Positions 61,849-64,000 of a stretch of DNA of 64,000 nucleotides are shown one piece after another. Position 1 is the stretch's first letter, and each line of letters starts with the position of its first letter. The position numbers were made by a program, and so were the translations under genes. Source of the DNA: Escherichia coli (lineage in GTDB: Bacteria; Pseudomonadota; Gammaproteobacteria; Enterobacterales; Enterobacteriaceae); assembly GCF_044647545.1 (NCBI RefSeq), contig NZ_CP172818.1; one strand, 5' to 3'. The notes beneath the pieces were generated by a model, which was not told the origin of the DNA, ran no database searches, and saw only the letters and a list, made by a program, of their open reading frames with translations.

Positions 61849-61882
61849 GCCGGATGCGGCGTTAACGCCTTATCCTGCCTAC
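61849..61882. repeat. REP element downstream of barA
   Basis: tgccggatgcggcgttaacgccttatcctgcctac matches the REP pattern. Confidence 0.6.
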
Positions 61883-61965
61883 AAAATCAATTAAATTCAA
61901 TGAATTAAAAAGTATGTTGGCCTGATACGTAGCGCAACAGGCAATTTTGCGTTTGGCATCAGTCT

Positions 61966-61999
61966 CAAACCGGCTCCTGACAGAGCCGGTTTTTGTTTT
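61966..61999 (+). terminator. Rho-independent terminator (aaccggct cctgacag agccggtt + TTTTTGTTTT)
   Basis: 8-bp stem followed by a T-run. Confidence 0.7.
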
Positions 62000-62004
62000 C
62001 AGTC

Positions 62005-63345
62005 TTAACGCACCATGCACGGGCGCTTGTTATCAAACGTCCAGCCAGGAATCAGGTACTGCATTCCCATCGCATCGTCACGCGCGCCAAGCCCGTGTTT
62101 CTGATACAGCTCGTGGGCTTTCATCACCTGATCCATATCGATTTCTACGCCCAATCCTGGTTTTTGCGGCACCTGTACCAGCCCGCCTTTGATCTCAAAC
62201 GGTTCTTTGGTCAGACGCTGATTGCCTTCCTGCCAGATCCAGTGCGTATCAATAGCAGTAATTTTACCCGGTGCAGCAGCGGCTACATGGGTAAACATCG
62301 CCAGGGAAATATCGAAGTGGTTGTTAGAGTGTGAACCCCAGGTCAGGCCAAATTCATGGCACATTTGCGCCACACGTACCGAACCTTGCATCGTCCAGAA
62401 ATGCGGATCCGCCAGCGGGATATCAACGGATTGCAGGGAGAGCGTATGGCCCATCTGCCGCCAGTCGGTGGCGATCATATTGGTTGCGGTCGGCAGGCCA
62501 GTCGCGCGACGGAACTCTGCCATCACTTCACGCCCGGAGAAACCTTGCTCCGCACCACACGGATCTTCTGCATAAGCCAGCGAACCTTTCAGGTATTTAC
62601 CAATTTTAATCGCTTCGTTCAGCGACCAGGCACCGTTAGGATCGAGGGTAATACGCGCCTGTGGGAAGCGTTGCGCCAGTGCCACAATAGATTCTGCTTC
62701 TTCTTCCCCGGCCAGTACACCGCCCTTCAGTTTGAAATCGTTGAAGCCATATTTTTCATATGCCGCTTCCGCCAGGCGCACCACCGCATCCGGCGTCATC
62801 GCTTCTTCGTGACGCAGGCGATACCAGTCACATTGATCATCCGGCTGGCTTTGATACGGCAGCGGTGTGGCTTTGCGATTACCGACGAAGAACAGATAAC
62901 CGAGCATTTCGACTTCGCTACGCTGTTGACCATCGCCCAGCAGCGATGCCACGTTAACCCCCAGATGCTGCCCCAGCAGATCCAGCATTGCCGCTTCTAT
63001 CCCGGTAACCACATGAATAGTGGTCCGCAGGTCAAATGTCTGCAAACCGCGCCCGCCGGCATCACGATCGGCAAATGTATTACGCACCAGCGTCAGAACG
63101 TTTTTGTATTCACCCAGCGTTTTACCCACCACCAGCGGAATCGCATCTTCCAGCGTTTTACGGATTTTCTCGCCGCCGGGAATTTCCCCTACCCCAGTGT
63201 GACCAGAATTATCTTTGATAATCACAATATTACGCGTGAAGAACGGTGCGTGTGCACCACTCAGATTCATCAGCATACTGTCATGGCCCGCCACCGGGAT
63301 GACCTGCATTTCAGTAACAACAGGCGTCGTAAATTGAGAACTCAT
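62005..63345 (-). CDS. gudD: Glucarate dehydratase (enolase superfamily)
   Basis: Start taken at [23 protein letters not shown] (446 aa). Confidence 0.93.
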
Positions 63346-63365
63346 ATTTATGTCCTTTTTCAAAA

Positions 63366-64000
63366 TCAATGACGGCCGAAAACGGGACGTTTACGGTCAA
63401 AGGTCCAGCCGGGGATCAGGTACTGCATCGGGCCCGCGTCGTTACGCGCACCGCCAGGCAGACGTTTATAGGCCTCATGCGCCTTTTGTACCTGCTCCCA
63501 GTCCAGTTCCACGCCCAGACCGGGCGCATCAGGAACGGCAATTTTTCCATTTTTAATCTCCAGCGGATTTTTGGTCAGGCGACAATCGCCCTCCTGCCAA
63601 ATCCAGTGGGTATCGATAGCGGTAGGATTACCCGGTGCCGCCGCGCCCACATGGGTAAACATCGCCAGAGAGATATCAAAGTGGTTATTGGAATGGCAGC
63701 CCCAGGTCAGCCCCCAGTCGTCGCAAAGCTGCGCTACGCGGACTGCACCGGAAAGCGTCCAGAAGTGCGGGTCGGCAAGTGGAATATCTACCGCATTGAG
63801 CATCACCGCATGGCCCATTTCGCGCCAGTTGGTGGCGATCATATTAGTCGCGACGGGCAAGCCGGTCGCCCGCCGAAATTCCGCCATCACTTCACGTCCG
63901 GAGAAACCCTGTTCTGCGCCACACGGATCTTCGGCATAGGTGAGAACATCATTCAGCCCTTTGCACAGAGAAATAGCTTCATCAAGCAGCCATGCTCCGT
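63366..64000 (-). CDS. gudX: Glucarate dehydratase-related protein GudX, partial (N-terminus lies beyond the window end)
   Basis: Reading frame open to the window edge; C-terminal 174 aa paralogous to GudD. Confidence 0.85.

Follow-up and report, generated by a model that had tools for sequence, protein, structure and literature searches.

The DNA analysed here, a stretch of 64,000 nucleotides from Escherichia coli that we refer to as the window, terminates inside the E. coli gudP-gudX-gudD operon. The features at this end of the window are as follows.

61967-61992, no strand assigned: 10-bp GC-rich hairpin, AAACCGGCTC-loop-GAGCCGGTTT, from a terminator scan in which the plus strand was scored
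62005-63345, minus strand: gudD, D-glucarate dehydratase, a complete CDS of 446 aa plus stop with an ATG start (MSSQFTT...); RefSeq 'gudD: glucarate dehydratase'
63346-63365, minus strand: the 20-nt spacer between gudX and gudD, whose reverse complement reads TGA TTTTGAAAAAGGACATAAAT ATG
63366-64000, minus strand: the 3′ part of gudX, glucarate dehydratase-related protein (GlucDRP/YgcY); RefSeq 'gudX: enolase C-terminal domain-like protein'

The visible part of gudX consists of the TGA stop (63366-63368) and the 210 C-terminal codons of 446 (63369-63998), or 47% of the gene, in a reading frame that is uninterrupted up to the window edge. The preliminary description of this DNA had given 174 residues, a count that starts from an internal GTG/Met used by the ORF lister. 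The same lister proposes a 454-aa gudD with a TTG start at 63369; this is an in-frame upstream extension rather than the annotated start, and we rejected it. The part of gudX beyond the window was read from locus L001 (NZ_CP033850), which comes from an identical genome and encodes the same proteins as the window. Mapping to this locus places the true start of gudX outside the window, some 706 nt from its end, and gives the gene a length of 1341 nt, with gudP beginning 1 nt upstream of it. The gene names and the tandem arrangement that had been assigned earlier both hold, the former in the RefSeq annotation of identical E. coli chromosomes and the latter in two minus-strand genes separated by the 20-nt spacer. 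A 2.3-kb stretch of the locus is present in 5,425 of 5,426 complete E. coli genomes (megablast), several of them at 100% identity, and chromosomes of this last kind are annotated with barA (+), gudD (-) and gudX (-), with gudP in the same neighbourhood. The gudX-gudD spacer contains AAGGA, which resembles a Shine-Dalgarno sequence and precedes the gudD ATG by 8 nt, and a promoter/terminator scan found no promoter-like or terminator-like site between the two genes, which is consistent with co-transcription. On the other side of gudD, the hairpin lies between the convergent barA and gudD genes, 13 nt beyond the gudD stop, flanked by a T-run on the plus strand and by an A-rich run on the opposite side. 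It is likely to act as a bidirectional intrinsic terminator that ends the gudPXD transcript, its use on the minus strand being what we infer. The barA-gudD spacer also contains a REP-like sequence with its core at 61849-61861.

Both genes are already known, as annotated E. coli genes whose proteins and whose complex were solved between 2000 and 2013. The gudD of the window is that of E. coli GudD/GlucD (EC 4.2.1.40; b2787, ygcX; PDB 1EC7-1ECQ, 1JCT, 1JDF), and its product differs from the K-12 protein by two amino acids, S171Q and E394Q. The gudX of the window is that of E. coli K-12 GudX (YgcY, b2788; 4IL0, 4GYP chains C/D), in the same gudP-gudX-gudD position beside barA. Compared with the gene of the K-12-derived strain JM109, the allele of this strain, as read from L001, differs at 54 of 1341 nt and 8 of 446 aa (A2T, D58E, D66E, V76I, K125Q, E142D, V164L and Q379K), and none of the eight differences falls at a catalytic or clade-diagnostic site. 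At the nucleotide level this strain and K-12 differ by 4.0% in gudX and 3.3% in gudD, compared with 1.1-1.9% in the flanking genes other than the small yqcA, which differs by 3.1%. GudX has been crystallised by itself (4IL0), and entry 4GYP contains both sequences under the title 'heterotetrameric complex of GlucD and GlucDRP from E. coli K-12 MG1655'; this entry provides a physical GudD-GudX hetero-oligomer, whose role in vivo is putative.

Within the window, GudX aligns with residues 238-446 of GudD with 153 of 209 residues identical (73%), no gaps and E=4e-116 (BLASTP), and the full-length proteins, each of 446 aa, are identical at 284 of 448 positions (63%). The similarity is unevenly spread, from a minimum of 33-37% at residues 61-105 to a maximum of 97% at residues 256-285, a segment that includes the metal ligand E260, and the window thus covers only the better-conserved half of GudX. 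The Pfam domain MR_MLE_C, a modified TIM barrel at the C-terminus, is found in both proteins, at 173.5 bits in GudX, 163.7 in GudD and 125.5 in the GudX fragment of the window (cut-off 29.4), and the capping domain MR_MLE_N scores 33 bits in GudX; with this barrel and an N-terminal capping domain, GudX belongs to the enolase superfamily (MR/MLE-type). The paralogy and the superfamily membership proposed in the preliminary description are borne out by these comparisons, and the three shared motifs it quoted occur in both translations; neither low identity nor different domain families were seen in the pairwise alignment that it had suggested as a check. The two proteins have the same fold (TM 0.93-0.95), the same length and the same catalytic and ligand residues, and differ in 37% of their sequence; a GudX model superposes on solved GlucD and GlucDRP structures with TM values of 0.92-0.97. 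They are separated by the glucarate dehydratase equivalog model TIGR03247 (cut-off 828.7 bits), which GudD passes with 899.2 bits and GudX fails with 750.7. GudX therefore belongs to the GlucD subgroup but should not be classed among the glucarate dehydratase equivalogs. Its closest solved relative outside E. coli is the GudX-clade protein of Actinobacillus succinogenes 130Z (3N6H/3N6J/3PFR), with 795.8 bits and 72-75% identity as against about 650 bits for the GlucDs (1EC7 etc.). That entry is annotated just as 'mandelate racemase/muconate lactonizing protein'. The single-copy GlucDs of Pseudomonas, Bacillus, Bradyrhizobium and others (for example P. putida GlucD, 1BQG) share the subgroup and the catalytic residues with GudX, but cluster with GudD, to which they are 72-77% identical.

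We next consider the active site, for which the preliminary description had proposed comparing the catalytic residues of the two copies. In the published GlucD numbering, we take D235, E260 and N289 to be the Mg2+ ligands and H32, T103, Y150, N237, H368 and R422 to be the residues in contact with glucarate. Catalytic and ligand roles other than those of the four Catalytic Site Atlas residues named below are presumably as described in the GlucD papers of Gulick, Gerlt and Rayment. H32, T103, Y150, K205, K207, D235, N237, E260, N289, D313, H339, N341, D366, H368 and R422 of GudD are all the same in E. coli GudX, so that every GlucD catalytic and ligand residue is kept, and all 15 are invariant in the sequences collected (27/27 of the GudX clade and 40/40 GlucD/GudD). 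Four of them, K205, K207, N237 and H339, are those listed for 1ECQ in the Catalytic Site Atlas (PMC4922564). The KxK motif at the end of strand 2 (K205/K207 in GudD, with K207 as a general base, and K204/K206 in GudX) lies within FKLKGG of both proteins and is kept throughout the 27 GudX-clade sequences; for GudX, where this region is not covered by the window, L001 supplied the sequence. Equally kept in 27/27 are the GudX Mg2+ ligands D234, E259 and N288, the last two of them inside the window, and the His-Asp dyad H338/D312, which is the second acid/base catalyst, together with N340, all inside the window. Since the catalytic residues are the same in both proteins, the catalytic apparatus has not diverged, and since the glucarate-contacting residues are unchanged in GudX, no difference is apparent in the binding pocket proper.

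The differences between the two clades are found elsewhere, for the most part in two loops of the N-terminal capping domain, the 20s loop and the 100s loop. In the enolase superfamily, the loops of this domain cover the bound substrate and determine specificity. Twelve positions are fixed differently between the GudX and GudD clades, and nine of the twelve are within residues 28-140, in the N-terminal capping domain: L28I, S29G, Q102W, D105E, I110V, H111N, T114A and Q140K (GudD to GudX), the ninth being an additional Gly near residue 89 in GudX. The other three, D294N, S322A and G418P, are C-terminal. GudX also has a 2-residue deletion at GudD 108-109. The sole internal low-confidence segment (pLDDT <50) of the GudX AlphaFold model comprises residues 96-103, which would fit a mobile lid. 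Two deposited mutants of E. coli GlucD, S29G.P34A (3PWG) and P34A (3PWI), carry replacements that are present in the GudX clade, S29G in 26/27 sequences and P34A in 22/27; these mutations are GudD-to-GudX swaps, and those positions have thus already been probed by others.

We turn to the age of the pair. The two genes are adjacent, on the same strand and of equal length with 63% protein identity, as would be expected if gudX had arisen from gudD by recent tandem duplication and were now losing its function, whether through neutral decay or at an early stage of subfunctionalisation; weak GudX activity, reportedly described by Hubbard and colleagues in 1998 and indirectly supported by the TIGR03247 score of GudX below the cut-off, would also agree with such a history. 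Several lines of evidence refute it, and we regard it as very improbable. First of all, the two genes are only 65.6% identical in nucleotides, with a longest identical run of 20 nt, and NG86 estimates give dN=0.29 and dS=1.66 (saturated). Second, in a neighbour-joining (NJ) analysis the GudX clade is monophyletic in 81 of 100 bootstraps, and a group of GudX with the enterobacterial (paired) GudD was recovered in 0 of 100. Third, GudX, paired GudD and single GlucD are equally far from the main outgroup (mean corrected distances of 1.241, 1.243 and 1.238, respectively), indicating no rate acceleration in GudX. Fourth, E. coli GudD is closer to the GlucDs of Pseudomonas and Bacillus (73-77%) than to its neighbour GudX, and single-copy GlucDs as a whole (Pseudomonas, Bacillus, Paenibacillus, Bradyrhizobium, Variovorax and Acinetobacter) show 70-77% identity to GudD and about 65% to GudX. 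Finally, the constraint on gudX, its presence in nearly all E. coli genomes and the age of the pair as judged from its distribution, which we describe below, speak against a recent and decaying copy as well. The marks of a recent in-situ tandem duplication (copies that are closest relatives, low dS, conversion tracts) were thus not found in gudX and gudD.

The outgroup available for these comparisons is small, as about 10 full-length sequences of the distant set were usable and most other matches were fragments. The ten representatives are non-monophyletic and form two groups that attach at different places in the NJ tree. For this reason we relied on bipartition support and relative distances rather than on a rooted tree, and the exact position of the root is uncertain, given a distance-based tree and such outgroups. 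With a distance method and non-monophyletic outgroups, the GudX-GudD split appears to predate the radiation of the sampled GlucDs. Judged from the sequence comparisons, the split is ancient and does not derive from an in-situ duplication in the Enterobacterales.

The 97% identity at residues 256-285 may also raise the question of gene conversion between the tandem copies, which could account for the high C-terminal similarity, all the more so as natural recombination has occurred near that segment, in the Pantoea stewartii gene described at the end of this section. In the same segment, however, the nucleotide identity is 80%, and where the two proteins share a residue, the codons agree in just 45% of cases; no identical run longer than 20 nt occurs anywhere between the genes. 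These differences at synonymous sites indicate that the protein-level conservation is maintained by selection and not by gene conversion, which we consider the most improbable of the explanations discussed here.

Conservation within and between species points in the same direction. Ortholog dN/dS values are 0.016-0.088 for gudX and 0.025-0.111 for gudD, and the E. coli and Citrobacter proteins are 96.4% identical for both GudX and GudD; by these measures, purifying selection on GudX is as strong as that on GudD. Of the 5426 complete E. coli genomes, 5407 carry gudX at a coverage of at least 80%, all sampled rows list it as an ordinary CDS, and its ORF is intact in all 38 loci from which the full gene was recovered. 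The signs of a pseudogene or of decay, namely relaxed dN/dS, disruptions and patchy presence, were not seen in gudX. The low dN/dS and the near-universal presence in E. coli mark it as an old and maintained gene, and a gene that is both old and constrained must do something.

In a distribution scan with one genome per species, which returned 80 loci, the gudX-gudD tandem, mostly with gudP before it, was found in the Enterobacterales (Citrobacter, Enterobacter, Pantoea, Erwinia, Dickeya, Pectobacterium, Serratia, Rahnella and Budvicia), the Orbaceae, the Pasteurellaceae and one divergent proteobacterial MAG. The Pasteurellaceae, to which the tandem of Cricetibacter (L034) belongs, thus keep the pair too. 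Throughout three gammaproteobacterial orders gudX is nearly always directly upstream of gudD, with junctions that are short or overlapping. The gudX-gudD pair is older than the split between Enterobacterales, Pasteurellaceae and Orbaceae. GudX-clade genes that have no gudD beside them also occur. In Halomonas eurihalina MS1 the gene is directly downstream of KdgD (5-dehydro-4-deoxyglucarate dehydratase), and no gudD lies up to 5 kb away; in Paludibacterium yongneupense DSM 18731 the genes are arranged garK-gudP-gudX-like, again with no adjacent gudD. Two GudD-type genes form an independent tandem in Lucifera butyrica.

On the basis of these data, the identity and the evolutionary status of the gudX/gudD pair are close to certain in our view. 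It is also highly likely that GudD is an authentic D-glucarate dehydratase and that GudX is an anciently diverged paralog of the GlucD subgroup, neither a recent copy nor a decaying one. The observation made in the preliminary description is confirmed as correct, though it is not new, and its interpretation is partly supported: divergence after duplication stands in a deep sense, whereas a duplication in situ in the Enterobacterales is contradicted by dS, by the bootstraps and by the equal outgroup distances, and the pair, ancient and constrained and with gudX a core E. coli gene, is not a candidate for recent divergence.

GudX takes its place among the conserved enzyme paralogs of E. coli K-12 without an established physiological role, and a search of the paper library used here for the function of GlucDRP/GudX returned nothing relevant. 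Glucarate dehydratase proper converts D-glucarate or L-idarate to 5-keto-4-deoxy-glucarate. We propose that GudX would be a folded acid-sugar enzyme that depends on Mg and combines a competent general-base/acid pair, Lys206/His338, with an altered lid, and that this lid would make GudX alone a poor glucarate dehydratase. It might then act in the GudD pathway, either as a subunit of a GudD-GudX heterotetramer or as an enzyme for a related diacid sugar imported by GudP. Any specific physiological role for GudX is at best tentative, and our confidence in one falls short of an even chance. The roles of partner subunit and of altered-lid dehydratase/epimerase fit the data and are not mutually exclusive. 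The invariant catalytic set and the stand-alone GudX-clade genes in glucarate-type clusters favour real catalysis; the crystal complex and a place next to gudD that is kept almost everywhere point to partnership.

If partnership prevailed, GudX would mainly be a non-catalytic or weakly catalytic, pseudoenzyme-like partner that tunes the stability or the kinetics of GudD in the heterotetramer. The GlucD-GlucDRP heterotetramer of 4GYP, the position of gudX almost always directly upstream of gudD in three orders and a score under the curated glucarate dehydratase cut-off would all be in line with this. A purely structural role, on the other hand, would not need the 15 catalytic and ligand residues that are kept in 27/27 sequences, and GudX crystallises by itself; in addition, stand-alone genes of the clade occur beside KdgD in Halomonas or garK-gudP in Paludibacterium. 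We consider a mainly auxiliary GudX unlikely, although within reasonable bounds.

Alternatively, GudX might be an independent dehydratase or epimerase that channels another GudP-imported diacid sugar into the 5-keto-4-deoxy-glucarate pathway. Whole catalytic machinery under different lid loops would be what such a shift in substrate predicts, strong purifying selection on gudX agrees with it, and so do the Halomonas eurihalina gene that follows KdgD with no gudD nearby and the garK-gudP-gudX-like order of Paludibacterium. The glucarate-contacting residues are however all unchanged in GudX, and we consider this shift unlikely to the same degree as a mainly auxiliary role. In a broader form, GudX might constitute a distinct ancient functional class in the GlucD subgroup, be it an obligatory tetramer-modifying subunit or an enzyme for another diacid sugar, which we hold to be a real, though tentative, possibility. 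Such a class would be recognisable by its conserved lid substitutions, I27, G28, W103, E106, N110, A113 and K139 (GudX numbering). That Halomonas eurihalina and Paludibacterium have GudX-clade genes with no gudD next to them speaks against an obligate heteromer. With the residues for chemistry whole in GudX, the places to look are the lid loops and the heterotetramer.

The only GudX phenotype that we found comes from Tn-seq in Dickeya solani, where gudX is a fitness gene on galactarate. In this species the operon is gudP-gudX-gudD-garL-garR-garK, with garD separate (Tn-seq supplement). As garL-garR-garK lie downstream in the same operon, gudX insertions are expected to be polar on garL. Polarity on garL-garR-garK is thus the simplest explanation, and we rejected the phenotype as evidence for GudX function.

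Finally, at the syntenic site Pantoea stewartii carries only one gene (L032:5001-6335), and this gene is a natural gudX::gudD chimera. Its N-terminal part of about 260 residues is GudX-type (9/9 diagnostic sites), and its C-terminal part of about 190 residues is GudD-type (3/3 diagnostic sites), with sliding windows over residues 260-380 or so showing 95-100% identity to the GudD of Pantoea sp. IMH. The crossover is located near the most conserved segment, and the chimera represents a ready-made domain-swap experiment.

In Pantoea stewartii subsp. stewartii CCUG 26359, the syntenic yqcA-gudP-...-barA locus holds a single dehydratase gene rather than two, and this gene joins the two paralogs.

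L032 (contig NZ_VZPF01000011), 5001-6335: gudX::gudD chimeric dehydratase gene

The N-terminal ~260 residues of its product are GudX-type, with all nine of the clade-diagnostic sites in that part in the GudX state, and the C-terminal ~190 residues are GudD-type (3 of 3 sites). In sliding windows over about residues 260-380, identity to the GudD of Pantoea sp. IMH is 95-100%. The chimera is a natural domain swap, with GudX supplying the capping domain and the barrel's first half and GudD its second half, and it likely arose by unequal crossover within the most conserved segment, residues 258-285.

Two further species carry a GudX-clade gene, and a search within 5 kb of it detected no gudD in either.

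L043, 4313-6338: region with the GudX-clade gene of Halomonas eurihalina MS1
L030, 2344-6332: region with the GudX-clade gene of Paludibacterium yongneupense DSM 18731

In H. eurihalina, the GudX-clade gene directly follows one for 5-dehydro-4-deoxyglucarate dehydratase (KdgD), and another KdgD paralog is located 3 kb further along. The gene order in P. yongneupense is garK-gudP-gudX-like. These arrangements, considered over the 5 kb around each gene, suggest that GudX-type proteins are able to act as the only nearby dehydratase of the pathway.

In the Firmicute Lucifera butyrica, two dehydratase genes lie side by side, downstream of gudP.

L059, 3584-6323: two tandem GudD-type genes of L. butyrica

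Their products share 68% and 76% identity with GudD of E. coli, and neither is GudX-type; this tandem is a separate duplication of the same enzyme.

The differences in the 20s loop that emerge from the clade comparison were already under test by the depositors of PDB entries 3PWG and 3PWI, the S29G.P34A and P34A mutants of E. coli GlucD, since the substitutions give GudD the amino acids that GudX-clade proteins usually have there (G in 26 of 27 sequences, A in 22 of 27). A search of one literature library found no paper linked to these entries.

Between 62005 and 64000, comparison with the alleles of the K-12 derivative JM109 (L082) shows a nucleotide divergence of 4.0% for gudX and 3.3% for gudD, most of it synonymous (8 and 2 amino acid changes, respectively). 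The flanking gudP, barA, rlmD, truC and yqcC differ by 1.1-1.9% and the small yqcA by 3.1%. Alleles of gudX with at least 99% identity to the one in this strain occur in just 136 of 5418 genomes. The raised divergence of the pair may reflect recombination of this segment or a weak constraint on codons.

The spacer between the convergent barA and gudD holds two palindromic elements, and two reading frames run antisense to the paralogs.

61849-61885: REP-like palindromic unit, GCCGGATGCGGCGTTAACGCCTTATCCTGCCTAC, ~75 nt past the barA stop
61967-61992: 10-bp GC-rich hairpin flanked by T/A runs, 13 nt beyond the gudD stop
62356-63372, plus strand: 338-codon reading frame antisense to gudD
63571-63939: similar case, 122-codon reading frame antisense to gudX

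The hairpin is probably a bidirectional terminator of the convergent barA and gudPXD transcripts. Each antisense frame lies wholly inside a conserved coding gene of the opposite strand, and both look like shadow frames produced by high-GC third positions rather than genes.
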